NCBI GenBank assembly: GCA_028344675.1
Contig: JAOMBT010000002.1
Coordinates: 830-64,829 of the forward strand
Direction: 5' to 3'
DNA from: Acidimicrobiaceae bacterium
GTDB taxonomy: Bacteria; Actinomycetota; Acidimicrobiia; Actinomarinales; Actinomarinaceae
Length of the DNA stretch: 64,000 nucleotides
The notes beneath the pieces are model-generated. The model was not told where the DNA came from, did not search any database, and saw nothing but the letters and a program-made list of their open reading frames with translations. A program made the position numbers and the translations under genes. Below are positions 2,949 through 29,018 of the stretch, piece after piece (position 1 is the stretch's first letter; every line of letters begins with the position of its first letter).

Positions 2949-2950
2949 TT

Positions 2951-4093: not shown

Positions 4094-5159
4094 GTTGTAT
4101 ATATTTCTTCCAACTTTAGGTTACGGAGGAGCTGAAATTTCCCTCTCAAGAGTTGCAGAGTTTTTGGCAGATACTTCTGGAGTTGAAATTAAGTTGATAG
4201 TTGCAAAAAAATTAAAACACGACCCCGAACTAAAGATTACAAATTCATTAAAAGTTGAATACTTAAACTCTCAAAAAACTTTTTTTTCATTATTTAAATT
4301 ACTTTTATTAATAAATAAGGAAAAACCAGATGTAATTATTAGTACATTGCCTACACCAAATTTTATGGTTACTATTTTAAAAAAATTACGATTAATTAAT
4401 TCTAAAATTGTTCTAAGAGAGGCAAATTCCAACTATTTAAATTGGAACAATAGTTTAATTAATAAAATTAAAGGAAAAATGTCAATTTTTTCATTTAATA
4501 ATTCTGATGCCAACATTTTTATATCTAAAGAGTTAAAAGAAAATATTGAAAAGCATCTTTCAAATAAAAAAAATATTGTAATTTACAATCCAGTTTTTAC
4601 TGAAGATTTTTTTCAAAGAGCTAATGAAAAAGTTTCAGAAATTAATTTTAAAAATAAAGAAATATGGATTACTACGTCAAGGCTTGAACACCAAAAGGGT
4701 TTAGATCTTCTCTTTGATGCAGTTCATGAATTAAAAGATGTTAAAAATTTTATCCTACTAGTAATTGGTGATGGGAGTTTGGAAACTGTTTTTAAAAATA
4801 AATATTCTAAATTACCAATAAAGTTCCTAGGGAATGTTCAAAATCCCTTGAAGTATTTAAATTTAGCTGATATCTTCTTCTTTCCTTCAAGAAGAGAGGG
4901 GCTAGGAAATTCATTAATAGAAGCTCAGATACTTGGCAAAAATATAATTTCTTCTGATTGCCCTTCAGGTCCAAAAGAGATTGTTAACTTTTTCAAAAAT
5001 GGTGTATTGTTCGAATCAAATAATCTAAATGATTTAGTCAAATCGATTTTAAATATTGAATTAAAACAAGGAAACACAGTTTCTAATGATTTAATTAATG
5101 AGTTTTCCGTAGCAAGAATAAGCGAACAATATTATGACTTAATACAAGAAGTTATCTAA
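4086..5159 (+). CDS. Glycosyltransferase, GT4 family
   Basis: N-terminal LPTLGYGGAEISLSRVAEFL. C-terminal SRLEHQKGLDLLFDAV...FPSRREGLGNSLIEAQILGKNIISSDCPSGPKEIV matches the GT4 E-x7-E nucleotide-sugar binding signature. Its start overlaps the previous stop by 4 nt, suggesting an operon. Confidence 0.8.
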   Translation: MNKLYIFLPTLGYGGAEISLSRVAEFLADTSGVEIKLIVAKKLKHDPELKITNSLKVEYLNSQKTFFSLFKLLLLINKEKPDVIISTLPTPNFMVTILKKLRLINSKIVLREANSNYLNWNNSLINKIKGKMSIFSFNNSDANIFISKELKENIEKHLSNKKNIVIYNPVFTEDFFQRANEKVSEINFKNKEIWITTSRLEHQKGLDLLFDAVHELKDVKNFILLVIGDGSLETVFKNKYSKLPIKFLGNVQNPLKYLNLADIFFFPSRREGLGNSLIEAQILGKNIISSDCPSGPKEIVNFFKNGVLFESNNLNDLVKSILNIELKQGNTVSNDLINEFSVARISEQYYDLIQEVI

Positions 5160-5208
5160 TAAATAAATATGCCCAATTTGATTTATATACAATTATAATT
5201 ACAAACTA

Positions 5209-5772
5209 ATGGACCAAATTGATAAATATCTCAAAGAATCAGCTGATGTAGCTCTTGAACAAATAAAACTAAAATCAGTATTCTTTGATATTGCCGAACA
5301 AGTTCTTCATAGAGTTCAAAATGGAGGGACTGTGTTTTTTTGTGGTAATGGAGGTTCAGCAGCCGATTCTCAGCATTTGGCTGCAGAGTTAATAGGAAGA
5401 TTTAAAAAAAATAGAAAACCAATTAGCTCTATTGCTCTGACTACAGATACTAGTATTATTACATCTACAGCAAATGATTTTTCATACGAAGAAATATTCT
5501 CCAGACAACTACTAGGGCTAGCTAGTGATAAAGATGTTTTAATTGCAATTTCTACAAGCGGTGAAAGCCAGTCAGTACTGAACGCAGTGAATGTTGCAAA
5601 TGATATTGGTATGCTGACTGTTGGTTTTAGTGGAAAAAATTATAATAAGCTATGTGAAATAGTAAAGTATAAGCTTCAAATACCATCAAAGGAAACTGGC
5701 ATTATCCAACAAGGACATATTACATTTGGTCAATTACTCTGTTTGTTCTTAGAAGAAAAATTATTTAATTAA
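5209..5772 (+). CDS. gmhA: D-sedoheptulose-7-phosphate isomerase (SIS domain)
   Basis: FFCGNGGSAADSQHLAAELIGRF followed by ISTSGESQSVLNAV is the GmhA/SIS signature. The length (187 aa) fits. Confidence 0.85.
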   Translation: MDQIDKYLKESADVALEQIKLKSVFFDIAEQVLHRVQNGGTVFFCGNGGSAADSQHLAAELIGRFKKNRKPISSIALTTDTSIITSTANDFSYEEIFSRQLLGLASDKDVLIAISTSGESQSVLNAVNVANDIGMLTVGFSGKNYNKLCEIVKYKLQIPSKETGIIQQGHITFGQLLCLFLEEKLFN

Positions 5773-5791
5773 TATTTGAATTTTTAAAATC

Positions 5792-6988
5792 ATGGTATTC
5801 AAATTAAAAGAGTTTCAGAAAAACTCTCCAGGCATCATAATATTTTCTCATAAAGAATTCGTTAAATATTCACAATACAAAACATTCAACAAAGTATTAA
5901 AAAGATATAAGAATAACTATTTTTTTGCTGTTCATTGGGGAGCTTCATATGAAAATACTTCAGAATACAATTTTGAAAATATAGATATAAACTTTTGTTA
6001 TCCTGAACAACTCCCAGACTTAGAAAATCAAGAGATATTATCTTATACGACTAGGTCTTTTATACCAAGTACAATTTTTAATAATGCAACAAGCAAAGAA
6101 AAGGAAATCGATCTAATAACTGTTACAAGAAAAGTTAACGCAAAATATAATAGGGATATATTTAATATCAGCAAAGAGTTGATATTAGTCAATCCCAATA
6201 TAAAAATTACAATACTTGTTGCTAATCCTAATTATGTAAAGTCAAACTATGATCACCTATTTAATGAAAATTTCGAAGAAATTTTGGGAGCTTATAAAAA
6301 TAAAAATGTAAAGCTTATTAGGTTTGATGAAATTCCTAAACAAGAGATTGTTGCAGATTATTTAAAAAGATCTAAATTATTTTTATTCACATCTAGAAAA
6401 GAAGGTGTGGCTAAAGTAACTGCAGAAGCAGCCTTGTGTAACCTGCCAGTTTTAATAAATTCAAATTTTTTTGGGGGAGCAAGAGCAGGCATAAATACAA
6501 AGTTTTTACTTGAGTATGATTCAGTTAAAACAGCCGTAATAAAAATTAATCAAATATTGAATCTACAAAAATCTAATGCTAGAACTTCTGATATAGAAGT
6601 TGCAACTGAAAGTTTAAATGATATTAAAAACCTCAGAAATTTACATAAAGATTTACAAATCTATTTTGAACGAAAAGGTAAACCTTATTTTGGTGATCTA
6701 GATGAAAATAATCTAAAAAATAGGATGAATAGTTTTTTGAAGGAACTCCCTGATTTATACGTTGTCGAGAACAACGACCTAAAGTCAATATTTGCACTTG
6801 CAAAATATTTTCAAAATTTGTGTATTGGTGATTTTAAACAATCTAAGAGCGGACTATTATATGATAGAATTTTAAATTTTCGTTTAAATTTGAATATTAA
6901 AGATATTATTTTTAAATTAAGTCCAGTTTGGTTTATTAAGATTATCAGAAGAAGAACAGTCTTGAAAAATGAGCTTTCGTATGAATAA
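5792..6988 (+). CDS. Hypothetical protein with a GT-B-like C-terminal segment; possible divergent glycosyltransferase
   Basis: FTSRKEGVAKVTAEAALCNLPVLINSNFFGG resembles the GT4 FPSxxEGFGxxxLEAmaxGxPVI motif. The N-terminal half is unrecognised. Confidence 0.3.
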   Translation: MVFKLKEFQKNSPGIIIFSHKEFVKYSQYKTFNKVLKRYKNNYFFAVHWGASYENTSEYNFENIDINFCYPEQLPDLENQEILSYTTRSFIPSTIFNNATSKEKEIDLITVTRKVNAKYNRDIFNISKELILVNPNIKITILVANPNYVKSNYDHLFNENFEEILGAYKNKNVKLIRFDEIPKQEIVADYLKRSKLFLFTSRKEGVAKVTAEAALCNLPVLINSNFFGGARAGINTKFLLEYDSVKTAVIKINQILNLQKSNARTSDIEVATESLNDIKNLRNLHKDLQIYFERKGKPYFGDLDENNLKNRMNSFLKELPDLYVVENNDLKSIFALAKYFQNLCIGDFKQSKSGLLYDRILNFRLNLNIKDIIFKLSPVWFIKIIRRRTVLKNELSYE

Positions 6989-8432
6989 TAAAAAATTTAG
7001 CAACATAACGCTTAACTATTTAATATCTAATTTTTCACCCAGATTAGCAAGTTTAATACTTTTACCCGTTTTTTTAAGGCTTATGGAGATTAACATATGG
7101 GGAGAAATATCCTTGTTGCTAGCTTTTCAAATACTGTTTGTAAATATTTTTTCATGGGGACTTGATTCATTAGGACATAGAATATTTCAAGATCTTGATT
7201 CGAATAAAAAAAGCGAATTCATTAAAAGAACCACTAAAAAATTTTTTATATACAATTTATTTTTTTTAATAATCCTAGAATTTGTTTTAAATACTAATCT
7301 CACAAATTTTTTTAAAGTTGATTATGGTGTTCCTTTCAGGCTGGCAGTCTTTACTGGTATATTAATTTCATATACTAGATTACTAATAAATCTTTATAAA
7401 TCATTGAATGAATCTACAGTTATTAGAAATTCAATATATATTGAATCTCTTCTTATCCCAATTTTTCAGTTATTACTAGTCACATTAGTTATCTATTTTT
7501 ATGGTTTTGAAGATAGGATGATTGTGAGCTCATACTTTATAGGACAATTTTTTGGGACTTTAATTAAAACCGTGTATCTTAAACGTAAGTCGAATATTTT
7601 GTTTTCTACATTCCACGAAAAATCATTAAACATAAGTAAAAAAATGCAAGAAAATTATTCAAACTTAAGCTATATTTATGCAATATTCGCAATGTTATTA
7701 GCTTGGCAAGATAGATTTATCTTATCAAGGTTGTATACCTTGGAAGAAGTTGCTGAATATTCAACTGTCTACAGACTTGCTGATTTACACGGTGTATTTA
7801 TAGGTGCTTTTGTCTCAGCAATTGCTCCAATATTATGGTCAGTAAACAATAAAAATAAAAATAAAAGCTTAGAATTGTTTAAATCAATAATATCAATTTC
7901 AAGCCTACTTGGTTGTTTGGGAGTTTGTATCTCGGTAATAATCGGACCAATTTTACTTCCTCCAAAATATCAAAGTGCATTAGCAATTATTCCTTACCTA
8001 TCGGTAGGTTTTATTTTTTCAAGCTATGCTTCATTGTACGGACTTCTGCTTGAAAAAAAATATAAATTAAATATACGACTGGTCTCAATGATTTTTGGCG
8101 CAGTAATTAATTTTTTGTTAATTTATATAACAATTGACGAACTTGGAATACTTGGTTTAGCAGTTTCAACCATGGTGGGTTATTTCGTAGTATTTCTTAT
8201 AAATTACGCATACGCAGAAAAAGAATATAAATATTTTTTACTTAACAAAGAATTAATTTTTTCTATTGTAATTATTATTGCATTTAAAATTTTGTACAAA
8301 GATGTATGGTTTTTTAATTTATTTTTTTTAGTACTATCAGTGTTAATATTAATCTTAATGTTCAATCAATTTAAAAAATTATTACATATTCAAAATGATG
8401 ATTTTTTTAACATCGGTGAAAAAAATGATTAA
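6969..8432 (+). CDS. Wzx-like polysaccharide flippase (MOP superfamily)
   Basis: 487 aa with ~12-14 helices. The N-terminus NITLNYLISNFSPRLASLILLPVFLRLMEINIWGE is typical of O-antigen and polysaccharide biosynthesis flippases. Confidence 0.6.
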   Translation: MSFRMNNKKFSNITLNYLISNFSPRLASLILLPVFLRLMEINIWGEISLLLAFQILFVNIFSWGLDSLGHRIFQDLDSNKKSEFIKRTTKKFFIYNLFFLIILEFVLNTNLTNFFKVDYGVPFRLAVFTGILISYTRLLINLYKSLNESTVIRNSIYIESLLIPIFQLLLVTLVIYFYGFEDRMIVSSYFIGQFFGTLIKTVYLKRKSNILFSTFHEKSLNISKKMQENYSNLSYIYAIFAMLLAWQDRFILSRLYTLEEVAEYSTVYRLADLHGVFIGAFVSAIAPILWSVNNKNKNKSLELFKSIISISSLLGCLGVCISVIIGPILLPPKYQSALAIIPYLSVGFIFSSYASLYGLLLEKKYKLNIRLVSMIFGAVINFLLIYITIDELGILGLAVSTMVGYFVVFLINYAYAEKEYKYFLLNKELIFSIVIIIAFKILYKDVWFFNLFFLVLSVLILILMFNQFKKLLHIQNDDFFNIGEKND

Positions 8433-9216
8433 ATCAACTGCTTATTTTATTAATTCAATTGTTAAAGAAATTTCGGATGTATTTTATTGGTCAAAATTAC
8501 CGAATAATGAATTTACTAATAAGGGATTTGTAATTATAGAAAATTTTTTAGATAGTGATTTATGTGATGAGTTAGTTCAAGTTGGAATTCAAAATACAAA
8601 AGAAAAGTCTCAAATGATTGCTGATAATGTTTGGATAAATGTTAGAGCTGAAGCTGCAGATGGTAAAGACAGTAAGGTAAAAAATATATTTAATTTTAAT
8701 TTATTAAATAAAAAGTTAGATGATTTAATTAATTCAAATGTTTTAACAGAAAAATTAGAAGAACAACTAGGTGATAAAGTAATTCTAAAAACTTGTTCCT
8801 TACAAATTGACGAGCCAGATATTAGAACTAAGAGGAGCTGGCATGTTGATAGGAACCCCCCTCCTACTTTTAAAGCATTTATCTACTTAACCGATGTAGA
8901 TTCTGAATTAGAGGGACCATATTGTGCCATTCCAGGTTCACACAAATGGAGAATTAAAAGATTATTAAATATATTCACAAATCTAGTTACTGGAGCAAAA
9001 AGATCTGATATGCATAGATATATTGGCGAAAGGGATGATTATTTTCTTGCTAAAAAAGGTACATTAATTTTTTCAACACAGACTTTATTTCACCGTGGAA
9101 GTCCTAAGCATGAAAGTAAAACTAGATACATGTTAATAAACTATTTTAAGGCTGAAAAATTTGATGATGGTAAAGAATTCGAATTAGGAAAACCAGAAGA
9201 ATGGATGATGAACTAA
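8395..9216 (+). CDS. Phytanoyl-CoA dioxygenase (PhyH)-like Fe(II)/2-oxoglutarate oxygenase
   Basis: SWHVDRNPPPTFKAFIYLTDVDSELEGPYCAIPGSHKW and a later FHRGSP give an HxD...H facial triad in a PhyH-like arrangement. Confidence 0.5.
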   Translation: MMIFLTSVKKMIKSTAYFINSIVKEISDVFYWSKLPNNEFTNKGFVIIENFLDSDLCDELVQVGIQNTKEKSQMIADNVWINVRAEAADGKDSKVKNIFNFNLLNKKLDDLINSNVLTEKLEEQLGDKVILKTCSLQIDEPDIRTKRSWHVDRNPPPTFKAFIYLTDVDSELEGPYCAIPGSHKWRIKRLLNIFTNLVTGAKRSDMHRYIGERDDYFLAKKGTLIFSTQTLFHRGSPKHESKTRYMLINYFKAEKFDDGKEFELGKPEEWMMN

Positions 9217-9222: not shown

Positions 9223-10020
9223 ATGTCAAAACACAAGGCGGCGATTTTAACAGGAGGAAGCGGATTTTTAGGTAAGCACTTTATAAATGGACTATCAAAA
9301 AACCACCAAACAATATATATTTTGGATACAAAAGAGCTCAATAAAGAAATTAAAAACAATTTTAGTACCATAGATATTCAATTTTTTAATGTAAATGTTT
9401 CTGAAGAAAAAGAGGTTGTAAATTTTTTCAACTCTATTGTAGAAAATGAAATTCCATTAACTACATTATTAAATGCCGCAGCAAGCAACCCCTCAATTAA
9501 TTTAGATGGCATGATGGATAGTTCAAAATTTGAAGATTTTAAGGTGTTGAATTTTAACTCTTCATTGATTAATTCACTAACAGGAAGTGCGCTAATGTGT
9601 AGAGAGTTTGTTAAACTCGCTTCAATTCAAAATAATGGTTATGAAAAGTTGATATTAAATATAGGATCAGATTTATCTGTAATTGCTCCAGATAATAGAA
9701 TTTATGAAAAAGAAGGAAGCAGCGAAGAGATGTTTAAACCAATAGAATATTCAATTTCAAAACACGGCATCTTGGGTCTTACTAAGTATCTTGCAGTTTA
9801 CCTTGCTGATAAAAATTTTAGAGTAAATACACTGTCTCCAACAGGAGTATTTAATAATCAAGACAAAGAGTTTATAAAAAATTTTTCAAACACTGTTCCA
9901 CATGGGAGAATGCTTAATCCTGAAGAGTTGGTATCACACGTATCATATCTTACAAGTGAAGATTCTAAATTTTTAACTGGTCAAAATATTTTGGTTGACG
10001 GAGGAAGGTCAATCTGGTGA
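9223..10020 (+). CDS. Short-chain dehydrogenase/reductase (SDR)
   Basis: N-terminal AAILTGGSGFLGKHF (TGxxGxxG Rossmann motif). Catalytic YSISKHG (YxxxK). Confidence 0.7.
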   Translation: MSKHKAAILTGGSGFLGKHFINGLSKNHQTIYILDTKELNKEIKNNFSTIDIQFFNVNVSEEKEVVNFFNSIVENEIPLTTLLNAAASNPSINLDGMMDSSKFEDFKVLNFNSSLINSLTGSALMCREFVKLASIQNNGYEKLILNIGSDLSVIAPDNRIYEKEGSSEEMFKPIEYSISKHGILGLTKYLAVYLADKNFRVNTLSPTGVFNNQDKEFIKNFSNTVPHGRMLNPEELVSHVSYLTSEDSKFLTGQNILVDGGRSIW

Positions 10021-10728
10021 GAAAAGGTTCTGGCCTCCATCTAAAATAATTTCTGTGTTGACAATATTTTTATTCTCAATTAAAAACCTAATAGCTTTAT
10101 AAATATCCTCGGGAAAAATCCAAGTTTTGTTAGGCATTGTATTATTTAAAAAAGTAATTTCTTCTTTTTTATCTTTGAACTTTCTATTCCACACTGAATT
10201 TTCGTGCATTATGTTGCCCGGCAGAATTGAGTTTACTCTTATCCCATACTCAAGAAAATCTTTTGCTAAAATTCTAGAATAGTTTAATAATGCTGATTTT
10301 GTTTGTTTGTATTCCTCAGAACACTTAAAGTTTTCAAGTGCACAAATAGAATTTATAAAAATAAAGTTTTCAACTATTTGAAGCTCCGTAGGGTATTCTT
10401 TTAAAATTTCTATAAAATTTTTGGAAGTATATAAGTTTTGTTTCATAAGCTCTTCTTTTCTGTCCTCAAATTTTTCTTTATTTGAACTACCTTGACCTGC
10501 ATTAAAAATTATGTTTTTCGGCATAATTTCAGAGCTATGAAATAATTCAATCAATTTTTCTACCTCATTTTTGATGCTAAGATCACATAAAAAATCTGTA
10601 GTATTGCTTTCAGTTCTTGCAACTCCTAAGGAATTTAAATTATCTGATTCAAACAAGTTGTATAGATCCTTACCAAGACCCTTTGAACTACCTAAGATTA
10701 AAATGTCACTAATTTTAGAGTATTGCAT
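10009..10728 (-). CDS. SDR-family oxidoreductase (divergent)
   Basis: ILILGSSKGLGKDL glycine-rich N-terminus, and IRVNSILPGNI typical of the SDR C-terminal region. Convergent with, and overlapping, the previous SDR by 12 nt. Confidence 0.5.
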   Translation of the reverse strand: MQYSKISDILILGSSKGLGKDLYNLFESDNLNSLGVARTESNTTDFLCDLSIKNEVEKLIELFHSSEIMPKNIIFNAGQGSSNKEKFEDRKEELMKQNLYTSKNFIEILKEYPTELQIVENFIFINSICALENFKCSEEYKQTKSALLNYSRILAKDFLEYGIRVNSILPGNIMHENSVWNRKFKDKKEEITFLNNTMPNKTWIFPEDIYKAIRFLIENKNIVNTEIILDGGQNLFSPD

Positions 10729-11515
10729 TTTCTACAAATGTTTTATATTTAATCATTACATCTTTATCTTTCATGCCAGGTATTCTTGCAGCTTGAAGTA
10801 TTAAATTCTTTTCATAATTGAGTTTTTTTAATTCTTTCAATACATTTGTGATACTTGCATCTCCCTCTCCTAAAGGCACTGTTTTCCCTTGGAATAACCT
10901 ATCTTTAATATGAATATTTTCTATTAAGTCAAAATAATCATCAAATTCATTTTGAAAATTGTAGCCTTCGTAAGCGCTATTTCCAATATCATAATTTATT
11001 TTAAATATGTTTTTGTCGATAGAGTTAAAAAGCATTTTGATATTTTCAGAATTTAGATCAGATTCAATACATATTTTTATATTTTTTGGCACAATTTTTT
11101 GAATTTGTTCAAATATATGTATTTGATTTTTTATTTCAAGATTTTTTAAAGTCATTTTTTCTAGTAATGGTAAAACATAAAGTGAAGTCTTTAATTGTGA
11201 CATTTTCATAAAAACACGCTCCATATGTTCAAGTATTTTCCCAGATAAAATATCAGACCTTTCATGTTGAAGAAAAAAGTCATCTGACACACTTCCAATG
11301 ACTATATTATTTTCATGTAAAATTTTATTTACATAATCATGGTTAAACAAGAATGGATTTGTTTTAATACTTTTTTTATCAAGTACCCATTCAATTATTT
11401 GGAAATTAAGTTTTTTTGCATAAACTAATTCCTCTTCCCAATGTTTGGATGGAAATTCTTGTATTTGCGCATGTAAAGGCTTCACCATCCTTCCTTGCAT
11501 AAAACCAATTTTCAT
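10715..11515 (-). CDS. Hypothetical protein; possibly a TIM-barrel sugar-phosphate isomerase/epimerase
   Basis: 266 aa. The N-terminus MKIGFMQGRM resembles xylose-isomerase-like TIM barrel proteins. Not verified. Sits inside the NeuB/NeuA block. Confidence 0.2.
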   Translation of the reverse strand: MKIGFMQGRMVKPLHAQIQEFPSKHWEEELVYAKKLNFQIIEWVLDKKSIKTNPFLFNHDYVNKILHENNIVIGSVSDDFFLQHERSDILSGKILEHMERVFMKMSQLKTSLYVLPLLEKMTLKNLEIKNQIHIFEQIQKIVPKNIKICIESDLNSENIKMLFNSIDKNIFKINYDIGNSAYEGYNFQNEFDDYFDLIENIHIKDRLFQGKTVPLGEGDASITNVLKELKKLNYEKNLILQAARIPGMKDKDVMIKYKTFVENAIL

Positions 11516-11811
11516 AAATCTTTAAAAAATATTTTATCGGAAATTCCCTTATCATCAACAAATATATCAGCGTCAGGTTTGCCAAATATTAATTCATTAT
11601 ATTTGACTCCCCAATCTTTTAACTGCTGTTTTGTTAGTTCAGTCCAATCAAGGTTTGTAGTACTACCTCTTGCTGTGAACAAAATTATTTTATGATCTTC
11701 AATGTATAGTTTGTTTACTAAGTTAATTCTGTCGACAAAAGGTTCAGCTTTTTCATAGTCTCCATTTGTATTTGTACAAATCGTTCCATCAATGTCGAAA
11801 CAATAATTCAC
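11512..11811 (-). CDS. Small capless HAD-superfamily phosphatase
   Basis: FDIDGTIC (motif I, DxDGT), FTARGS (motif II), GKP (motif III) and FVDDKG (motif IV) in only 99 aa. Translationally coupled to the neuB-like gene. Could be a sugar-phosphate phosphatase (GmhB-like, or a nonulosonate-9-P phosphatase). Confidence 0.55.
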   Translation of the reverse strand: MNYCFDIDGTICTNTNGDYEKAEPFVDRINLVNKLYIEDHKIILFTARGSTTNLDWTELTKQQLKDWGVKYNELIFGKPDADIFVDDKGISDKIFFKDL

Positions 11812-12671
11812 AACCAGTATCTTAATTTTTTAGCAATTATTTTTTCTTGATCGGTAATTAATTTAACACCATTACCAAGAACAACTGGTAATTTTTTGAC
11901 CATATCAACTAAGTTTTTGAGTCCAGAGCCTTCCAGTGAAGCTGCTTGGTCAGATCCATAAGAAGATCTATCTTTTGTAATATGTCTTTCAATAGCTGTT
12001 GCACCTAAGCATGCCGCAACTAATGATGGAGATACAGATGGCTCATGACCGGAGTAGCCAATTGGAAGGTCAAATTTTTCTTTTAACGTAACTATACAAT
12101 TCAGATTAAGATTTTCTTCAGGAGAGGGATATTCAGAATTAGTGTGCATTAATGTAATGGGGCAACTATTTTTTTTAAAAATATTTACAACATCTTCTAT
12201 TTCTTCAAGAGTTGTCATTCCAGTTGAGACGAAAGTTGGCTTACCTTCTTTGGCTACATGTTCAACAAACTCAAGATTAGTTGCCATTGCGGATGCAATT
12301 TTGTTATAAGGAACATTGAATTGCTTCAAAAAGTCATGACTTGGAATATCCCAAGCAGACGCAAACCAGATAATATCAATTTCCTTTGCATAAGAATCTA
12401 TCTCACGGTATTCTGACTCATTAAACTCAAGCCCTTCTTTTTGTTCTCGCTGGGTTGTACCCCAAGGGGATTCCCTACTCTCCTTTAGAAATTCTTTGGT
12501 GTAAACAATATCAATAGTTCTTTTTTGAAACTTTACAGCATCACAACCAGAATCTTTAGCCATCTTCATCAACTCTTTGGCTAATTTTAAATCTCCATTA
12601 TGATTTATCCCTATTTCAGCAATTATAAATATATCATGTCCAGTTGTTGAATCGTTATCAAACCCAATCAT
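11808..12671 (-). CDS. neuB: NeuB-family nonulosonic acid synthase (N-acetylneuraminate / legionaminate / pseudaminate synthase family), lacking the C-terminal SAF domain
   Basis: IFIIAEIGINHNGDLKLAKELMKMAKDSGCDAVKFQK is the hallmark NeuB TIM-barrel N-terminus. At 287 aa it is shorter than canonical NeuB (~340 aa), so the antifreeze-like SAF domain appears to be absent. Confidence 0.8.
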   Translation of the reverse strand: MIGFDNDSTTGHDIFIIAEIGINHNGDLKLAKELMKMAKDSGCDAVKFQKRTIDIVYTKEFLKESRESPWGTTQREQKEGLEFNESEYREIDSYAKEIDIIWFASAWDIPSHDFLKQFNVPYNKIASAMATNLEFVEHVAKEGKPTFVSTGMTTLEEIEDVVNIFKKNSCPITLMHTNSEYPSPEENLNLNCIVTLKEKFDLPIGYSGHEPSVSPSLVAACLGATAIERHITKDRSSYGSDQAASLEGSGLKNLVDMVKKLPVVLGNGVKLITDQEKIIAKKLRYWL

Positions 12672-12677
12672 AGATAT

Positions 12678-13796
12678 CTAGTTTCTTTCATTATTTTCTT
12701 TAATTATATGCGCAATAATATTTTTAGCACTTAAATCAGAATCTATATTTATAAATTTTTGTGCACCCAAAAGCTGCATGTCAAAAAGATTTCTCTGGTA
12801 ATTTAAATCATTATTTAATTTTGATATCTTTTTAAATAACTCATCGACATTCTTTACCAAGCTTTCGGGAGATAGGTACTCATTTTTATAATCATCAAAT
12901 GGCCAAATTACAGCATAAATTCTTCCTATTAATGAAACCTCATGAATAGATGAAGAAGGACCAGAGATAATACAATGATTTTCTCTAATATCACTTTCAA
13001 TATCAGTTTCATGTAATATATTTACATTTTTTAAACTTTTATATTTTTCGTAATCGCCAAAATTGTCTCTAGGGTGCACTTTTATATTTAATATGTAGTT
13101 ATCTGAAAGTGAGGAATTTATAATTTCCTCAATTATTTTTGACTGCCAAGAACTTTCCCAATCAACTTTGTGATAAGAAGCAGCAGAAGTCAAGAAAAGT
13201 AAGTTATTAATCTTTTGTGACCGGTGATTACTTGATGTTTTAAATGATGCAACAATGTTTGTATATCTTGGCACCCCATAATTGAAGATGATATTTTTTT
13301 TATTAGTAAAATTTTCGAGTTTAATTTTTGGACTTTCCCCAGTAGTAAAATATCCGTTTACATTATCCAGAAAGTTTTTCTTAGGTTGAAGTTCCTTTTG
13401 TGAGTTAAGGTATAAATAAATTTTCGCACCAGCTTCAATGAAGTATGTTTTTTTTGAGTTGTTTCTGAATTTTTTTGTTAAACGACCTTCATAAAATCCT
13501 CCAGGAGAAAATATGTATACATCAAAATATGTTCCGTAATATTTAATTTTTAAAAATTTAAAAAATAAAATTATTAACTTATTAAGTTTATTTAATTTTC
13601 TTATATTTTTAAAAACAGAACGCTCTTTGATTACTTTAATATTTTTCGGTATTTCTAAATTTGAAATTGGTTGGGCGTACATAGATCTTAAATCAAGCAA
13701 AGCTACTTCATTTATTTTATTTTCTGATAATAGTTTTGCAATGGGAAATATGTTTTCCAATCCTTGTTTGTTATGAAAGCTAATTAAATACTTCAT
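12678..13796 (-). CDS. Hypothetical protein; candidate GT-B-fold nonulosonic acid (sialic-acid-like) transferase
   Basis: 372 aa, no TM helices. Contains KVHPRDNF, an HP motif characteristic of bacterial sialyltransferase-like GT-B enzymes. It lies immediately upstream of neuB in the same operon. Weak evidence. Confidence 0.25.
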   Translation of the reverse strand: MKYLISFHNKQGLENIFPIAKLLSENKINEVALLDLRSMYAQPISNLEIPKNIKVIKERSVFKNIRKLNKLNKLIILFFKFLKIKYYGTYFDVYIFSPGGFYEGRLTKKFRNNSKKTYFIEAGAKIYLYLNSQKELQPKKNFLDNVNGYFTTGESPKIKLENFTNKKNIIFNYGVPRYTNIVASFKTSSNHRSQKINNLLFLTSAASYHKVDWESSWQSKIIEEIINSSLSDNYILNIKVHPRDNFGDYEKYKSLKNVNILHETDIESDIRENHCIISGPSSSIHEVSLIGRIYAVIWPFDDYKNEYLSPESLVKNVDELFKKISKLNNDLNYQRNLFDMQLLGAQKFINIDSDLSAKNIIAHIIKENNERN

Positions 13797-13834
13797 TTTT
13801 TTAATACTAATAGGTGTATAGTAAATAATATCTA

Positions 13835-14542
13835 ATGAACAATATTAACTCTATTGCGATTATTTTGGCTCGAGGTGGCAGTAAAGAAATTCCGAATAAA
13901 AATCTTGAGACTATCAATAATAAATCTCTTTTAGAAATTACAATTAATCAAATCAAACAAGAGGTAAATATTGATATATTTGTTTCTTCAGATTCAGAAA
14001 ATATTCTTGATCAAGCTTCCAATTTTAATTGTTTTCCAATTAAACGTCCTGATCACTTATCTGGAGATGAGAGTTTGTCAGAGGATGCAATACTACATGC
14101 TATTAATTTTATTGAAAAAAATTTTAATATTGAATTTAATACAATATTATTTCCACAATTAACTTCACCGCTTAGAAATAATAAAAATTTTAAAGAAGCT
14201 CTTGAATTATATGAAAATAAAAATTATGATTCTCTTTTTTCATCTAATGATGCAAGTGACTGTCTTTTGTGGAGTAAAGATAAAACCGGAAAGCTCATTG
14301 AGGTAAATTTTAATAATAAAGAGAGAACAAGAAGACAGGAAAAAGATTTACAATTAATTGAGAACGGCTCTTTTTATATTTTTGATAAAGATAAATTTAA
14401 GATTCATAAAACAAGATTATTTGATTCAATAGGTGAGTACAGGATGGAATCATGGCAAGTATTTGAAATTGACAATTTTGATGATTTAGAATTATGTAGA
14501 CACATATCTAAAATAAAGAATATTGATGGGATTTATGGATAG
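13835..14542 (+). CDS. neuA: CMP-nonulosonic acid synthetase (acylneuraminate cytidylyltransferase family)
   Basis: IAIILARGGSKEIPNKNL matches the CMP-NeuAc synthetase P-loop-like signature IPARGGSKGIPxKN. 235 aa. Confidence 0.8.
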   Translation: MNNINSIAIILARGGSKEIPNKNLETINNKSLLEITINQIKQEVNIDIFVSSDSENILDQASNFNCFPIKRPDHLSGDESLSEDAILHAINFIEKNFNIEFNTILFPQLTSPLRNNKNFKEALELYENKNYDSLFSSNDASDCLLWSKDKTGKLIEVNFNNKERTRRQEKDLQLIENGSFYIFDKDKFKIHKTRLFDSIGEYRMESWQVFEIDNFDDLELCRHISKIKNIDGIYG

Positions 14543-15512
14543 TAAAAGAAAAGTTTGGATAAATGGGCAACTTTTACCTGAGTCAGAGGCAAAAGTACCA
14601 ATTTATGATTCAGCACTAATGTTTGGTGATACAGTATTTGAGATGACAAGATCATTTAATAAAGAACACTTTCTATTAGATGAGCACATAGACAGGCTTA
14701 ATGCTTCTGCAGAGTTTGTAGAGATAAAAATGCCTTATACTAAAAATCAGATACTTGATGCAATTGAAGAAGTTACGGAATATCACAATAATATATTCAC
14801 TTCTGACGATGAACATAGGTTAATGATCAACCTTACAAGAGGTTTGTTGGGAATATATGAAAATAATGTAGATTTTCCCGTGAAAGGTCCTATTTTAACT
14901 ATTGCTAACTTCCCTCTAAAGTGGACTGTATCTGGAATGTCAGATTATTTTTTTAATGGTATTCATGCAGTTGTTTCTAATCAAAAAATGATTCCAGATT
15001 TTCTGCTTAATGCAGCAGTAAAAAACAGAAGCAGACTTCATTATATGATGGCAAATATTGATGTGTCTAAAATGAATTTAGAGAGAGCGTGGGCATTATT
15101 AGAAGATTTAGAAGGGAATATCTGCGAAGGGACTGGTTCAAATATTTTTTTTGTTAAGAATGACGAAATTTTTACTCCAAAACCAAAAAATATGTTGAGA
15201 GGGATATCTAGGCAGTATGTTATTGACTTGGCCAGAAAAAATAATATCAACGTATACGAGGAAGACATAAAAGAAGAAGATTTTTCAAGTTTTTCTGAAG
15301 CTTTCTTTACTGCTACACCCTTCTGTATGGTTCCATGTTTTAAACTAAATGACCACATTTTAGACTTTCGACCTGAAGGTGGAATATACAATAAGGTGCT
15401 TTCTTTATGGTCTAATGAGGTTAGTGTAGATATTGAAAAACAAATAGTAAATTGGAATAAAGAAAAAGATTATTCTGGAAATAACTCAACCCCCTATAAG
15501 TTTAAAAACTAA
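14523..15512 (+). CDS. Aminotransferase class IV (BCAT / D-amino-acid aminotransferase fold)
   Basis: WINGQLLPESEAKVPIYDSALMFGDTVFEMTRSFNKEHFLLDEHIDRLNASAEF is a fold-type IV PLP enzyme N-terminus. Overlaps neuA by 20 nt. Confidence 0.65.
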   Translation: MMGFMDSKRKVWINGQLLPESEAKVPIYDSALMFGDTVFEMTRSFNKEHFLLDEHIDRLNASAEFVEIKMPYTKNQILDAIEEVTEYHNNIFTSDDEHRLMINLTRGLLGIYENNVDFPVKGPILTIANFPLKWTVSGMSDYFFNGIHAVVSNQKMIPDFLLNAAVKNRSRLHYMMANIDVSKMNLERAWALLEDLEGNICEGTGSNIFFVKNDEIFTPKPKNMLRGISRQYVIDLARKNNINVYEEDIKEEDFSSFSEAFFTATPFCMVPCFKLNDHILDFRPEGGIYNKVLSLWSNEVSVDIEKQIVNWNKEKDYSGNNSTPYKFKN

Positions 15513-16816: not shown

Positions 16817-18478
16817 ATGAACAAAATTTTAAAAATTGCGATTATTGTTGATGATTTGTTTATTTCTGACTACATTGCTGATTTAATTACCTGGTCAGAA
16901 AATATTGATTGTATTGATATCTCAAACTTCGTATATCTAGTTAATGATAAAGAAGATAGATTACCAAAGAAATCCAGACTGCAAAAGATACTCTCTATGG
17001 ATTTTTGGAAACAATATCCAAGAAGAAGACTTAAAAATTTTATTGTTTCACTTGAAAAAAAGAGAAATTTAAAAAATAATAAAATTCATCAAAATTCAGT
17101 TGATAAACATAATTTATACAATTTTGGATTGAAAAAGATAGAAGTACATCAGGAACCAACAAAATCTAAAGTGTCATTTAGAGCTACCCAAAAATCTTTA
17201 GATCTTTTAAAGAAGGAACAATTTGATCTTTTTATTCGATTTAATAAAAAAATAATAAGAGGCGATCTTTTGACGGTTTCAAATTTTGGCATTCTTTCAA
17301 TGCATCATGGAAGCGATCTTAACTATAGAGGTGGCCCATCAGGTTTTTGGGAGGTTTATAATAGTGATAATAAGTCTGGATATATTATCCAACAACTTAC
17401 TGAAGAGCTAGATAATGGAAATATATTATTTAGAGGTTTTATCCCAACTCAAAAATCTTGGCTATTAAATAAGTCAGAATTAAATATAAGATCTTTTTTC
17501 TATCTTAAAAAAATAATTTTTGAGATAAGCAAAGCGCACGAACTTCCTAATTTTTTGGTCAATGTTCCATATTCAAAGAGTTTGAATAAAGATCCAACAA
17601 TTTTTGTGATGATCAAGTATTTATTTAAAAAACTTAAAAACAAACAAGACTCAAAAAAATTTAAAAATGCTGATAATAGATATCTAGTTGGTTATCAGGA
17701 GGGAGAGTGGGGAAGCTTGAACTATCGAAATGCTAATTTTATCAAGAATCCAGATAACAAATTTTTAGCTGATCCATTTATAATTTCAAAAAATCATAAA
17801 AACTATTGTTTTTTAGAATCGTACGATTACTTTTTGGATAAAGGAACCATAGATGTTTATGAACTCACGAGCGGTAATAGTGAATTTTTAGGCACTGCCA
17901 TTGAAGAAGAGTTTCATTTGTCATTCCCATATTTGCTTGAGACAGAAAACGAAATATATTTAATTCCTGAAAGTTCAAAAAATAGGGATATAAGAATATA
18001 TAAGTCAATTGACTTTCCACTAAAGTGGAAATTGGAAAACGTAATAATAGATGATATCGATGCTTCGGATTCTATAATTTTTCACCGAGATAATTTATGG
18101 TGGCTACTAACCAATGTTGATGAACTAGGTTTAGGAGATCATAATTATCAAATGAATATTTACTATTCTGATAATTTATTATCACAAGATTGGAAACCAC
18201 ATAATTTAAATCCGATTATATTAAATCCCTCCTATGGACGTAATGGAGGTTTTTTAAAAAAAGGCGATAACTTGTATAGGGTTGCACAAAAATATGGCTT
18301 CAATCAAAAGTATGGCGAAGGAATTTCAATTAGAAAAATTCAAGAGATAACAAAAAATTCTTATGTGGAGGAAGAAATTGCTTCATATGTTGATTTTTAT
18401 GATGACAGTATTCTTGGAACTCATCATTTGTCATCAAATAATATTTTTACAGTATTTGATATCTGGAAAAGTCCATAA
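16817..18478 (+). CDS. Formyltransferase-domain protein fused to a ~300 aa C-terminal domain of unknown function
   Basis: ILSMHHGSDLNYRGGPSGFWEVYNSDNKSGYIIQQLTEELDNGNILFRG aligns with the PurN/Fmt core LNIHPSLLPKYPGLHTHRQAL...GTSVHFVTDELDGGPVILQ. The catalytic Asn is replaced by Ser (SMH instead of NIH). The C-terminal 300 aa are unrecognised. Confidence 0.5.
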   Translation: MNKILKIAIIVDDLFISDYIADLITWSENIDCIDISNFVYLVNDKEDRLPKKSRLQKILSMDFWKQYPRRRLKNFIVSLEKKRNLKNNKIHQNSVDKHNLYNFGLKKIEVHQEPTKSKVSFRATQKSLDLLKKEQFDLFIRFNKKIIRGDLLTVSNFGILSMHHGSDLNYRGGPSGFWEVYNSDNKSGYIIQQLTEELDNGNILFRGFIPTQKSWLLNKSELNIRSFFYLKKIIFEISKAHELPNFLVNVPYSKSLNKDPTIFVMIKYLFKKLKNKQDSKKFKNADNRYLVGYQEGEWGSLNYRNANFIKNPDNKFLADPFIISKNHKNYCFLESYDYFLDKGTIDVYELTSGNSEFLGTAIEEEFHLSFPYLLETENEIYLIPESSKNRDIRIYKSIDFPLKWKLENVIIDDIDASDSIIFHRDNLWWLLTNVDELGLGDHNYQMNIYYSDNLLSQDWKPHNLNPIILNPSYGRNGGFLKKGDNLYRVAQKYGFNQKYGEGISIRKIQEITKNSYVEEEIASYVDFYDDSILGTHHLSSNNIFTVFDIWKSP

Positions 18479-20160: not shown

Positions 20161-20430
20161 TTTTCAATGAAAGCTATGTTTCCATAAATTTTTTAAATAA
20201 TTTTTATGATATCGATTTTATTACATGGGATAATATTCCCAATATGGAGGCAGAGCAAATACCAAACTTTTATAAAGATTATGACTTCGTTATATTTGAA
20301 TCTTCTATTGATTCTTTTTTTGAAAGTAGAATATTAAAATTTTCAAACTAAAAATTTTGAACAAAAGTGCAGTTATGTGGGCAGTTTTGATTAGTTTATT
20401 TGTGAAGACCAATATAGCCTATGTTTATTG

Positions 20431-20503
20431 TGGCCAGAGGCAGAATCGAACTGCCGACCCCTTGTTTTTCAGACAAGTGCTCTACCGACTGAGCTATCTG
20501 GCC
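20431..20503 (-). tRNA. tRNA-Phe (anticodon GAA)
   Basis: The reverse complement folds as GGCCAGA-TA-GCTC-AGTCGGTA-GAGC-A-CTTGT-CTGAAAA-ACAAG-GGGTC-GGCAG-TTCGATT-CTGCC-TCTGGCC-A. Full cloverleaf. Loop CT-GAA-AA. No encoded CCA (followed by CAA). Confidence 0.9.
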
Positions 20504-20579
20504 AGTTAGATTATTATATTACAAACAAAATAAAGAAGTAATAGAAAATTTTTCTTATTTTGTGAGGTAATCTATTTTT

Positions 20580-21356
20580 GTGAATAAAAAAATTACCATA
20601 ATTTTAAATTCTCTAAAATTTCAATCATTCAGTTTTTTAAAATATGTTTTTTTTAAGAAAAAAAGAAAACGTATTAAAAGACATGCCACAGATTATTTTT
20701 ATAATTTACCATGTATAGATTTTGATAATTGGGCTAAAGAAATAGATATAAATTTATTTAATGAGATGCAAAAATTCCAAGTACATTTTCAAGAGTATGA
20801 AACAAATTTTAATTTTACCTATTTAGGAGGAGCTCGTGGACTTAATCAGTACGGCGCACTTTATTTCTTAACAAGGTTGATAAAACCCCAAAACACTTTA
20901 GAAACGGGAGTTGCAAATGGCTTCTCATCCTATAGTTTTCTGAGTGCTATTGAAAAAAATAATTTTGGAAGATTAATTAGTAATGATTTGCCGCCATTGG
21001 ACATAGAAAAGAAAAATTGGAAATATATTGGCCAGATGGTTCCCAAAAAATTTCACAATATTTGGACATTGCATCTAGGCAGTGATCGAAAAAATTTGAA
21101 TTCAATTTGTAAAGAAAACACATTTGACTTGGCACATTTTGATAGCGATAAACTATCTTCGGGAAAAATGTACTGTATCAATACGCTATTGAAGTACAAC
21201 AAAACGTCACCTATTATTCTAATTGACAATTGTGCAGATGACTTTTTTTGGAAAAACTTAATAATAAAATCATATAAAAAAGTTGTTTTTGATCAAAACA
21301 CTAAAAGATTTGGAATCTTAATTCATAAAGATGACATTACAAATTTTCAACTGTAG
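20580..21356 (+). CDS. Class I SAM-dependent methyltransferase-like protein (Methyltransf_24 / CmcI-like)
   Basis: LGGARGLNQYGALYFLTRLIKPQNTLETGVANGFSSYSFLSAI resembles the E(I/T)G(T/V)xxGxS motif-I region of O-methyltransferase family 3. GTG start. Sits alone between tRNA-Phe and tRNA-Asp. Confidence 0.4.
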   Translation: MNKKITIILNSLKFQSFSFLKYVFFKKKRKRIKRHATDYFYNLPCIDFDNWAKEIDINLFNEMQKFQVHFQEYETNFNFTYLGGARGLNQYGALYFLTRLIKPQNTLETGVANGFSSYSFLSAIEKNNFGRLISNDLPPLDIEKKNWKYIGQMVPKKFHNIWTLHLGSDRKNLNSICKENTFDLAHFDSDKLSSGKMYCINTLLKYNKTSPIILIDNCADDFFWKNLIIKSYKKVVFDQNTKRFGILIHKDDITNFQL

Positions 21357-21360
21357 ATAG

Positions 21361-21435
21361 CGGGGACGACGGGATTCGAACCCGCGACCTCCTGCGTGAC
21401 AGGCAGGCGTGAACTCCAGACTTCACCACGCCCCC
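21361..21435 (-). tRNA. tRNA-Asp (anticodon GTC)
   Basis: The reverse complement is GGGGGCG-TG-GTGAA-GTCTGGAG-TTCAC-G-CCTGC-CTGTCAC-GCAGG-AGGTC-GCGGG-TTCGAAT-CCCGT-CGTCCCC-G. The anticodon arm is identical to the canonical bacterial tRNA-Asp. No CCA encoded. Confidence 0.85.
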
Positions 21436-21636
21436 GAAAAATTTATTCCACTTAATACTAATAGTTATTAACTATATTTAATTTATTAAAAAAATAATTT
21501 TACAAAACTGATTTTTTAATTGTTATGTACATAAGTAATCTATTTACAATTAATAGATATGGATACACAATAAAGAGGGTTATTAATACTTTCAAACTAA
21601 ATCTTTATATAGAAAAATTTATAAGATTAATATTTC

Positions 21637-29015: not shown

Positions 29016-29018
29016 CTC

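Follow-up and report, generated by a model that had tools for sequence, protein, structure and literature searches.

Sialic-acid-like sugars decorate flagella, capsules, and S-layers, and they shape phage recognition, motility, and interactions with immune systems and grazers. The understood bacterial routes to these nonulosonic acids (NulO) are those of N-acetylneuraminic acid (Neu5Ac; NeuC/B/A), legionaminic acid (Leg; LegB/C/H/G/I/F), and pseudaminic acid (Pse; PseB/C/H/G/I/F), and all of them start from nucleotide sugars. These routes depart from UDP- or GDP-linked N-acetylglucosamine (GlcNAc). Besides a 4,6-dehydratase and a DegT aminotransferase, they need an acetyltransferase and a hydrolase of the Epimerase_2 family; their synthase carries a SAF domain and no phosphatase takes part. 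In the phospho-sugar route, by comparison, a sugar-6-phosphate is condensed with phosphoenolpyruvate (PEP) to give an ulosonate-9-phosphate, which is dephosphorylated by a phosphatase of the haloacid dehalogenase (HAD) superfamily and then activated with cytidine monophosphate (CMP) (PMC6200933). Examples are the animal NANS-NANP-CMAS set and the synthesis of deaminated neuraminic acid (Kdn) in Bacteroides thetaiotaomicron (synthase BT1714 and KdsC-type phosphatase BT1713) and in Prymnesium parvum. The present analysis compares these systems with a stretch of 64,000 nucleotides from an Acidimicrobiaceae bacterium (assembly GCA_028344675.1, contig JAOMBT010000002.1, positions 830 to 64,829), called here the window. 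Judging from its sequences, a block of genes in this window is probably, with a probability that we put at about 0.6, the marine-actinobacterial copy of a widespread cassette that would turn a sugar phosphate into a CMP-activated amino-ulosonic sugar with no nucleotide sugar along the way.

The core of the cassette in the window is a run of five minus-strand genes: a short-chain dehydrogenase (SDRa, 239 aa, 10009..10728), a UlaE-like TIM barrel (266 aa, 10715..11515), a capless mini-HAD (99 aa, GTG start, 11512..11811), a SAF-less synthase of the NeuB family (NeuBs, 287 aa, 11808..12671), and a protein of GT-B glycosyltransferase fold (U372, 372 aa, 12678..13796). They are tightly packed, with four of them overlapping by 4-14 nt and a gap of 6 bp between U372 and NeuBs. 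On the plus strand lie a NeuA-type CMP-ulosonate synthetase (235 aa, 13835..14542), a fold-type IV aminotransferase (AT4, 329 aa, 14523..15512), a second, PtmA-like short-chain dehydrogenase (SDRb, 265 aa, 9223..10020), and a GmhA-like SIS_2 sugar-phosphate isomerase (187 aa, 5209..5772). The original prediction, made from the letters of the window, had placed a NulO module at 10009-15512 on the strength of the synthase, the HAD phosphatase, the 372 aa protein, the NeuA-type enzyme, and the aminotransferase. These five genes are all real and in place, as confirmed by open reading frame, Pfam, and NCBIfam checks. The limits, on the contrary, were drawn too narrowly: the module covers 9223-15512 as a minimum, and its start is probably at 5209, since SDRb and SIS_2 have counterparts in other cassettes and the gene order of the window is kept in two other marine contigs. 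SDRa and the TIM barrel, both on the minus strand inside the predicted interval, had been left unnamed and neither dehydrogenase had been recognized as a member; the sugar-phosphate logic, which emerges from the NANS-like synthase and from an epimerase and an isomerase of UlaE-like and GmhA-like type, had also been overlooked.

The same grouping of genes is found around NeuBs orthologues in other organisms. A search with NeuBs returned thousands of homologues, and the best 120 are all NeuB-domain-only proteins of 253-309 aa (with a few fragments), 62-100% identical. More than 12 loci, which represent at least seven phyla, contain the cassette; its carriers include Omnitrophota (L001), Chloroflexota (Dehalococcoidaceae, L003), Desulfobacterota (Desulfovibrionaceae, L004 and L006), Alphaproteobacteria (Ferrovibrio, L008), Bacteroidota (L009), Magnetococcales (L011), and an archaeon, Methanoregula (L005), together with an unclassified bacterium (L002), two marine contigs (L014 and L015), and three further contigs from metagenomes or metagenome-assembled genomes (L016-L018). 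The recurring set comprises NeuBs, a CTP_transf_3 enzyme, a HAD of about 100 aa, an aminotransferase, an AP_endonuc_2 TIM barrel, and two short-chain dehydrogenases, usually in one operon, and a SIS_2 isomerase of the GmhA type often joins it. This set, with or without SIS_2, is present in the window, L001, L002, L005, L008, L009, L011, and L014-L018, and L014 and L015 match the gene order of the window gene for gene. Such recurrence in distant organisms is far beyond chance and indicates that the partners are not accidental. Two versions can be distinguished by the aminotransferase slot, which is filled by an Aminotran_4 protein in version A (window, L001, L002, L005, L009, L011, L014, L015, and L018) and by an Aminotran_3 protein plus a glyoxalase-fold protein in version B (L003, L004, L008, L016, and L017).

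Like the three nucleotide-sugar routes, the cassette combines a NeuB-family synthase with a NeuA-family CMP-transferase, its settings are likewise surface-glycan islands and flagellin glycosylation loci, and SDRb is similar to PtmA, which is encoded in the Leg locus of Campylobacter. However, the genes that characterize those routes are lacking: domain annotation reveals no UDP- or GDP-sugar 4,6-dehydratase or DegT aminotransferase in the cassette, and no Epimerase_2 or N-acetyltransferase gene either in it or elsewhere in the 40 kb island that surrounds it. The synthase has no SAF domain and is accompanied by a phosphatase, which those systems do not use. Since every curated cut-off is missed, the cassette proteins also lie outside the NeuB, PseI, PseF, IlvE, DAAT, UlaE, and GmhA equivalog families. 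The proposal of a sialic-acid-like (ulosonic acid) module outside the Neu5Ac, Leg, and Pse pathways is borne out by both the missing accessory genes and the missed equivalog cut-offs.

With the phospho-sugar route, the cassette shares a synthase that is sister to vertebrate NANS and, in two of its versions, phosphatases of the KdsC/Kdn-9-phosphate type. It differs in that NeuBs has neither a SAF nor an antifreeze-protein (AFP) domain and carries Met at the position of E134 of the Neisseria meningitidis enzyme (NmNeuB), in that the window has as phosphatase a HAD of only 99 aa, which lacks a cap and belongs to another subfamily, and in the addition of an aminotransferase, a UlaE-like epimerase, two short-chain dehydrogenases, and a GmhA-like isomerase; none of N-acetylmannosamine kinase, GNE, and N-acetyltransferase is found in the cassette. 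The added tailoring enzymes make it unlikely that the product is plain Kdn or Neu5Ac. By analogy, the core logic is best read as that of the 3-deoxy-D-manno-octulosonic acid (Kdo) pathway (KdsD/KpsF, KdsA, KdsC, and KdsB), that is, a SIS isomerase, a PEP condensation, a HAD phosphatase, and a CMP-transferase of the CTP_transf_3 family, to which redox, epimerization, and amination steps would have been added. In L006 a GmhA-KdsC-like fusion protein even joins the first and third of these steps. Nonetheless, the synthase belongs to the NeuB/NANS fold family and not to that of KdsA/DAHPS, and the isomerase is of the GmhA and not of the KdsD type.

Another system that deserves comparison is the sfmABCDE operon of Shewanella oneidensis, which is required for flagellin glycosylation and encodes a NeuB-domain-only protein of 290 aa (SfmA) and a PtmA-like dehydrogenase (SfmC) (PMC3765264). 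The adjacency of NeuBs and a thiamine pyrophosphate (TPP) enzyme in L006 mirrors that of SfmA and its TPP enzyme. Unlike the cassette, the sfm operon contains the TPP enzyme, a methyltransferase, and an ATP-grasp enzyme, and it lacks the aminotransferase, the TIM barrel, the HAD, and NeuA. A published account of the cassette was not found in a search outside which most of the subscription literature lay, and the NulO-cluster literature that was found makes no mention of its partner genes.

NeuBs is predicted to be a NANS-like, PEP-condensing ulosonate(-phosphate) synthase. Its only Pfam match, PF03102 (residues 34-270), scores 229.9 bits against a cut-off of 22.1 and places it in the NeuB superfamily; the motif AEIGINHNG occupies residues 18-26, as in the original prediction, and GYSGHE and ERHIT keep the His residues that align with H215 and H236 of NmNeuB. 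In canonical bacterial NeuB, a C-terminal SAF/antifreeze-like domain supplies Arg314 to the active site. NeuBs has a conserved AKKLRYW tail in place of the linker and the SAF domain. This absence had been regarded as an atypical trait, but it is not rare: NeuBs belongs to a large and tightly conserved SAF-less orthologue group, and about 30% of NeuB homologues lack the domain, SAF-less NeuB proteins being common but functionally unexplored (PMC8208679). The protein remains below the equivalog cut-offs of NeuB_NnaB (TIGR03569, 247.3 vs 399.65 bits) and PseI (TIGR03586, 194.7 vs 340.25), and its identity is 54-69% to the cassette orthologues across phyla and at most 36% to the solved 6ncs, Campylobacter jejuni PseI, Bacillus subtilis SpsE, and NmNeuB.

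The relationship with the animal enzyme is apparent both in pairwise comparison and in the tree. By BLASTP, NeuBs is 38% identical to dolphin NANS (197 bits, E 7e-66), while the solved bacterial enzymes reach 101-147 bits. In a neighbour-joining tree, the cassette synthases form a clade of their own with 100% bootstrap, sister to vertebrate NANS (92%), and NmNeuB, SpsE, PseI, and 6ncs fall outside the group formed by both; NeuBs is therefore closer to NANS than to the non-phospho enzymes NeuB, PseI, and SpsE. The motifs of NeuBs are KFQKR, SPWG-x-TQRxQKEGLEF, WFASAWD, GYSGHE, and ERHIT.DR..YGSDQAASLE, and those held in common with NANS are KFQK, WG..K..LEF, GYSGHE, and ERHITLD..GSD..ASLE. The NeuBs clade would be the closest prokaryotic relative of the animal Neu5Ac-9-phosphate synthase among the few references compared. 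The substrates that enzymes of the NANS type join to PEP are 6-phospho sugars, so that a phosphatase is needed afterwards (PMC6200933).

In the window, the candidate for this ulosonate-phosphate phosphatase is the mini-HAD. In spite of its 99 residues, it contains all four HAD motifs, as had been noticed from the sequence: FDIDGT (5-10), FTARG (45-49, with T46), GKPDAD (77-82, with K78), and VDDK (85-88, with D86-D87). It passes the HAD superfamily test, the Pfam and NCBIfam subfamily models staying below their cut-offs, and among solved structures it is closest to 9iqw (E 1.8e-11), which is labelled 'capsule biosynthesis protein'. Orthologues with 59-63% identity are encoded in L002, L008, L009, and L011. 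The gene overlaps that of NeuBs, and this overlap, together with the recurrence beside NeuBs in other loci, argues that the HAD is a real partner of the synthase, in line with the coupling suggested before. The mini-HAD is also found as an N-terminal fusion to AT4 in L011 (11640-13067, where the gene caller had missed the HAD part) and L018 (11293-12711), and it is fused to an S-adenosylmethionine (SAM) methyltransferase in L016 (9896-10957) and probably also in L017; these fusions suggest that the partners are functionally tied. L005 and L006 are devoid of the mini-HAD and have a HAD of the KdsC/Kdn-9-phosphate phosphatase type instead, which in L005 is a stand-alone KdsC-like protein (9464-9976) encoded directly upstream of NeuBs and in L006, from Desulfovibrio falkowii, is fused to a GmhA-like isomerase (12875-14098), so that isomerase and phosphatase are physically tied. 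The phosphatase slot can thus be filled either by the mini-HAD or by a member of the Kdo-8-phosphate/Kdn-9-phosphate phosphatase family.

An aminotransferase such as AT4 has no place in the known Neu5Ac, Leg, and Pse pathways, as the original prediction had pointed out. Its start (TTG 14523, ATG 14526, or ATG 14535) overlaps the stop codon of the NeuA gene (14540-14542) by 8-20 nt, an arrangement that indicates translational coupling of the two genes. Membership in fold-type IV is clear (PF01063, E 9e-42, 143.9 bits vs a cut-off of 28.5). On the contrary, AT4 falls below the equivalog cut-offs of ilvE_I (TIGR01122, 143.3 vs 245.55) and D_amino_aminoT (TIGR01121, 110.6 vs 277.45) and below that of PRK08320 (153.8 bits, cut-off 363), and the best solved branched-chain aminotransferase (BCAT) gives only about 111 bits. 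It is 45-48% identical to the AT4 proteins encoded beside NeuBs in L001, L002, L005, L009, and L011, and linkage of such orthologues with NeuBs is seen in eight or more loci from distant phyla. The family has motifs of its own, with FEMTR where BCAT has FEGIR and an invariant DDEHR. The catalytic Lys, which aligns within one column of that of BCAT, sits in an invariant (V/I)KNRSR (residues 166-171) where BCAT has K-A-G-G-N-Y; judging from their position, the two Arg of this motif could bind a phosphate or carboxylate of a sugar substrate. The missed IlvE cut-off, the cassette-specific orthologues, the HAD fusions, and these motifs all argue against an ordinary IlvE.

The same evidence bears on a more conventional explanation, according to which the block is an ordinary Neu5Ac, Leg, or Pse cluster whose other genes lie elsewhere in the genome and whose aminotransferase is a housekeeping IlvE neighbour. 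The visible portion of the genome is only 64 kb, and in NCBIfam the synthase does match NeuB_NnaB and PseI best, the cytidylyltransferase PseF, and AT4 BCAT. All these matches, however, are well below the curated cut-offs, the synthase clade is apart from NmNeuB, PseI, and SpsE, the linkage of AT4 with NeuBs extends over distant phyla and includes two fusions with the HAD, and enzymes of nucleotide-diphosphate sugars do not accompany the cassette in most loci. An ordinary cluster is therefore very improbable. It had also been suggested that the aminotransferase could supply a D-amino acid or another acyl donor to decorate the nonulosonic acid. Fold-type IV does include D-amino-acid transaminases (DAAT), and AT4 reaches the 110.6 bits given above with their model; nevertheless, the cut-off of 277 bits is missed, the BCAT models score higher, and none of ATP-grasp enzyme, ligase, and acyltransferase belongs to the conserved cassette in the loci compared. 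Moreover, in the five loci of version B the slot is taken by a non-homologous class III aminotransferase, which points to the amination of a sugar carbonyl and not to D-amino acid synthesis. This supply role is scarcely credible, and we rank it last among the explanations considered.

The remaining enzymes of the cassette also come from families acting on sugar phosphates or ulosonates, which supports a sugar-phosphate route. The TIM barrel (PF01261) is a probable ketose-phosphate epimerase or isomerase. The best solved match of its family profile is the L-ribulose-5-phosphate 3-epimerase UlaE of E. coli (3cqh, E 1.9e-24, full length), and its invariant residues are E151, D176, H202, K204, D205, R206, Q241, and R244; as it scores 38 bits with the UlaE/SgbU equivalog TIGR00542, whose cut-off is 272, it is a homologue of UlaE and not an orthologue. 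SDRa (PF13561 and PF00106) displays the motifs GSSKGLG (13-19) and YKQTK (140-144) and has orthologues in the cassettes of L005, L008, L009, L011, and L014-L017. SDRb, with YSISK at 176-180, obtains 152 bits with PRK09186 and 88.6 bits with FlagModPtmA, both below the cut-offs, and its orthologue is the last cassette gene in L002, L005, L008, L009, L011, L016, L017, and L018. The SIS_2 protein (PF13580, E 1e-24) is the probable first enzyme of the predicted pathway, converting a ketose phosphate into an aldose phosphate. It gives 162.2 bits with the phosphoheptose isomerase model TIGR00441 gmhA, below the cut-off of 209.45 (the cassette SIS_2 proteins range from 162 to 176 bits), and most of the residues that we take to be the catalytic and phosphate-binding ones of GmhA are conserved, with Gln at the position presumed to correspond to H180 in the E. 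coli numbering. In L008 its counterpart belongs to the cassette itself; in L003 it is the gene immediately upstream of NeuBs, in L005 it lies a short way upstream, and L006 and L015 have it in the vicinity. The annotation of the window shows neither a heptose kinase nor a nucleotidyltransferase. Finally, the NeuA-type protein, correctly recognized before as a CMP-sugar synthetase on the opposite strand (CTP_transf_3, PF02348, 61.6 bits vs a cut-off of 22.6; ARGGSK at 12-17), has the solved CMP-Neu5Ac synthetases as best matches (E 1.6e-22 to 3e-16) and fails the PseF equivalog (83.9 vs 205.7 bits); a gene of this type is present in every cassette version. Between it and the divergent U372 gene there are only 38 bp (13797-13834), scant space for two promoters, and a scan of the AT-rich window for promoter and terminator consensus sequences gave matches no more frequent than in shuffled sequence.

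U372 had been pointed out as a possible nonulosonate transferase because of an HP motif. The motif stands, H241-P242 being invariant in the family, and the transferase role is plausible in view of the GT-B fold and of the clan of HP-motif enzymes with CMP or CDP donors. TagF-like enzymes, HP-motif sialyltransferases, and KpsC/S use CMP- or CDP-linked donors. U372 resembles TagF, the HP-motif sialyl- and polysialyltransferases (GT38, GT52, and GT80), and KpsC/S in its fold, in H241-P242, and in S281-S283/E286; unlike them, it matches no Pfam model, its family profile has no meaningful match among the PDB sequences, and its acidic motif is E121-A-G123, not the D/E-D/E-G of HP-motif sialyltransferases. 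The invariants of the family are E121-x-G123, G-x-P-R-Y (174-178), H209, H241-P-R243, and S281-S-S...E286. The AlphaFold2 model (pLDDT 91) is matched by Foldseek to GT-B proteins with probability 1.0 and a TM score of about 0.6, the matches being about equal for UDP-GlcNAc 2-epimerases, PglH, TagF, and the Bcs3 polymerase of Haemophilus influenzae type b. Close sequence relatives are few and all come from marine metagenomes. A profile search yields 861 distant ones, some of which match Pfam Glyphos_transf (TagF), A-2_8-polyST, Capsule_synth, or Epimerase_2.

The epimerase matches raise the question of whether U372 is, instead of a transferase, a divergent nucleotide-sugar hydrolase or 2-epimerase of the NeuC/PseG type that supplies the sugar substrate. 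Top Foldseek matches are UDP-GlcNAc 2-epimerases, NeuC included, and one distant relative (P0133, 25% identical to U372) adjoins CTP_transf_3 and canonical NeuB+SAF genes, that is, it occupies the usual place of neuC with no other Epimerase_2 gene nearby; the IEAG of U372 also resembles the VEAG motif of the epimerases. But P0133, as well as another relative (P0135), passes the Pfam threshold of Glyphos_transf and not that of Epimerase_2, the cassette has no kinase for a free sugar, and the catalytic Asp of the epimerase HGDT presumably corresponds to SPGG in U372, according to a manual mapping to E. coli WecB. In addition, U372 is absent from the cassettes of other phyla, where proteins with TagF domains are found instead, which fits a lineage-specific and acceptor-specific transferase: the cassettes of L001, L002, L008, and L009 are flanked by proteins of some 640 aa whose C-terminal domain is TagF-like and which are only weakly similar to U372 (hhalign probability 55%, E 1e-4). 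A NeuC-like role is accordingly judged to be rather unlikely, and the best reading of the model and of the family is that U372 may act as a lineage-specific CMP-sugar transferase.

The identities of the genes, their conserved linkage and fusions, and the placement of the proteins in families are what was observed, and they suggest a pathway whose substrate, tailoring order, amino-group position, carbon number, and acceptor we infer as follows. A ketose phosphate from central metabolism would be reshaped by the UlaE-like epimerase, oxidized and reduced by one or both dehydrogenases, and aminated by the class IV aminotransferase, and the GmhA-like isomerase would convert it into an aldose phosphate. 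From this aldose phosphate and PEP, NeuBs would form an ulosonate with a terminal phosphate, which the 99 aa HAD may strip; the NeuA-type enzyme would then form the CMP-sugar, and U372 would transfer the sugar to a cell-surface acceptor built by the neighbouring glycosyltransferases and flippase. The sugar-phosphate logic is suggested by the UlaE match, the GmhA-like SIS_2, the synthase sister to NANS, and the KdsC-type HADs taken together. The conversion by AT4 of the 2-oxo group of the ulosonate into an amino acid was considered and rejected, as it would destroy the anomeric centre that the conserved CMP-transferase needs.

The same cassette and product class would be compatible with a different order of steps, in which the synthase acts first, on an unmodified sugar phosphate (mannose-6-phosphate or heptose-7-phosphate), and, after dephosphorylation, the free ulosonic acid is oxidized at a hydroxyl by a dehydrogenase and then receives its amino group from the aminotransferase. 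The synthesis of 8-amino-Kdo in Shewanella (KdnB/KdnA) proceeds by oxidation and then amination of the ulosonic acid. In this sense, L001 keeps only NeuBs, NeuA, and AT4 together, the HAD-AT4 fusion of L011 and L018 fits consecutive phosphatase and oxidation/amination steps, the alternative class III aminotransferase is of a type typical for terminal aldehydes, and the two invariant Arg beside the catalytic Lys of AT4 could bind a carboxylate. UlaE-like and GmhA-like enzymes, however, act on ketose phosphates, that is, before condensation, and the sequences contain nothing that fixes the order of the steps. Amination after condensation is thus held to be unlikely, but with an appreciable chance of being correct.

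Several observations weigh against the proposal of a phospho-sugar cassette for an amino-ulosonic acid. The position of NmNeuB E134, occupied by Glu in PseI and SpsE and by Asp in 6ncs and NANS, is Met (M129) in all the aligned cassette synthases but one, a paralogue in L007 that has Lys; the canonical S-D-H motif is S-G-H-E in these proteins, and NeuBs departs from NANS in lacking both an acidic residue at the E134 position and the AFP domain. The active site thus looks remodelled at the sequence level, and Met at the E134 position implies that substrate handling or mechanism may differ from those of NANS. The synthase tree was built by neighbour joining with few references, and BT1714 of B. 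thetaiotaomicron is not among them. In the TIM barrel, the fourth metal ligand is Gln241 and not Glu (the site of UlaE is Glu-Asp-His-Glu). The SIS_2 gene is absent from L009, L011, L016, and L017, and in the window it is 3.4 kb away from the core genes. L001 groups only NeuBs, NeuA, and AT4, which means that the dehydrogenase and TIM-barrel steps may not be obligatory. For the last step, Foldseek ranks UDP-GlcNAc 2-epimerases as high as transferases among the matches of U372. Nearly all the named equivalog matches are below their cut-offs, so that no exact function can be transferred, and no published biochemistry or glycan structure for any member of the cassette was found in the literature.

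A bolder version of the phospho-sugar proposal is that the cassette represents a fourth, nucleotide-sugar-independent route to sialic-acid-like sugars, with an undescribed amino-ulosonic acid as its product and a backbone maybe derived from heptose-7-phosphate, which would give a ten-carbon acid. The possibility of such a backbone comes from the GmhA-like isomerase embedded in the cassette and fused to the phosphatase in L006. We advance this version tentatively and with the odds against it. Unassigned higher-carbon CMP-ulosonic acids have been detected by mass spectrometry in environmental bacteria, with C10 in Magnetospirillum (bioRxiv 10.64898/2026.04.20.719630); if true, the ten-carbon reading would give a genetic basis for them.

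The surroundings of the cassette vary among its carriers. In L016 and L017, both of version B, it is placed inside an alphaproteobacterial flagellar cluster (FlgI, FlgK, FlgL-like, FlaF, FlbT, and flagellin), between the hook-associated genes and those of FlaF, FlbT, and flagellin. Genes for the glycosylation of flagellin with nonulosonic acids classically lie in such a position. A tetratricopeptide-repeat protein of 574-721 aa adjoins the cassette in both loci and could be an FlmG-like flagellin glycosyltransferase. Genes for radical SAM/SPASM or B12-binding radical SAM proteins occur near the cassette in L001, L002, L003, L007, and L008, and several SAM methyltransferases also recur beside it outside the marine lineage, which suggests C- or O-methylated sugar derivatives. 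L018 contains, just upstream of the cassette (2880-7573), genes for CTP_transf_3, a GFO/PtmF-like oxidoreductase, Epimerase_2, a DegT aminotransferase, and an acetyltransferase; with this second NulO-like gene set, a single organism may produce two distinct ulosonic acids.

In the window, the cassette lies in a low-GC stretch (positions 1-40,000, G+C 26-29%), followed by a housekeeping part of 32-37% that includes genes for ribonucleotide reductase, fatty-acid synthesis, pyruvate phosphate dikinase, and isocitrate lyase. Proteins identical to those of the window (MDC0076720-24) are public and belong to a marine metagenome-assembled genome. The low-GC stretch is a glycosylation island with many GT4, GT2, PMT_2, and methyltransferase genes and with tRNA genes. 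Between SIS_2 and SDRb, the plus strand encodes a GT4-like glycosyltransferase recognized by Pfam (5792-6988); a membrane protein with several passes (6969-8432), whose homologue in L014 and L015 is a Polysacc_synt flippase; and a PhyH-family Fe(II)/2-oxoglutarate dioxygenase of 273 aa (8395..9216; PF05721, E 1e-9). The first two are genes of glycan assembly that accompany the cassette in the marine lineage, and their order is also kept in L014 and L015, the only loci in which the dioxygenase gene is conserved beside SDRb; this enzyme is possibly a lineage-specific accessory, such as a tailoring hydroxylase. As GT4, flippase, and PMT_2 genes surround the cassette, a cell-envelope glycan is the likely destination of its product.

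Other genes of the island are of separate interest. A protein of 553 aa (16817-18478) combines a weak formyltransferase-like N-terminal part with a strong match to GINT1_N (E 6e-43), the N-terminal domain of the eukaryotic glucosamine inositolphosphorylceramide transferase, which is unusual in an actinobacterial glycan island. The tRNA genes for Phe, Asp, Lys, and Arg are scattered through 20430-26780, with an MpaB/rubber-oxygenase-family gene (24723-25565) and glycosyltransferase genes between them. A separate sugar set at 27981-33860 (GDP-mannose 4,6-dehydratase, NAD-dependent epimerase/reductase, DegT aminotransferase, GT2, and methyltransferase) resembles a pathway of the GDP-perosamine type; its GDP-mannose dehydratase and DegT genes (27981-31429) were considered as partners of the cassette and rejected, for they belong to a separate GDP-sugar pathway and are never found with the cassette in other loci. 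The end of the island (33868-39445) is occupied by four large open reading frames (161, 662, 558, and 441 aa), none of which has a Pfam match.

Beside the understood routes, the cassette appears to be a separate and self-contained one, based on phospho-sugars and with a built-in amination step. It is widespread, since it is carried by marine Actinomycetota that are abundant in the Tara/ENA metagenomes as well as by other phyla and a methanogen, and it offers concrete candidate genes for the ulosonic acids reported in mass-spectrometry surveys. As a compact set of six to eight enzymes, it may also serve for the chemoenzymatic synthesis of new CMP-sugars. Lastly, the existence of a prokaryotic clade next to the animal sialic acid synthases bears on the origin of the animal pathway.

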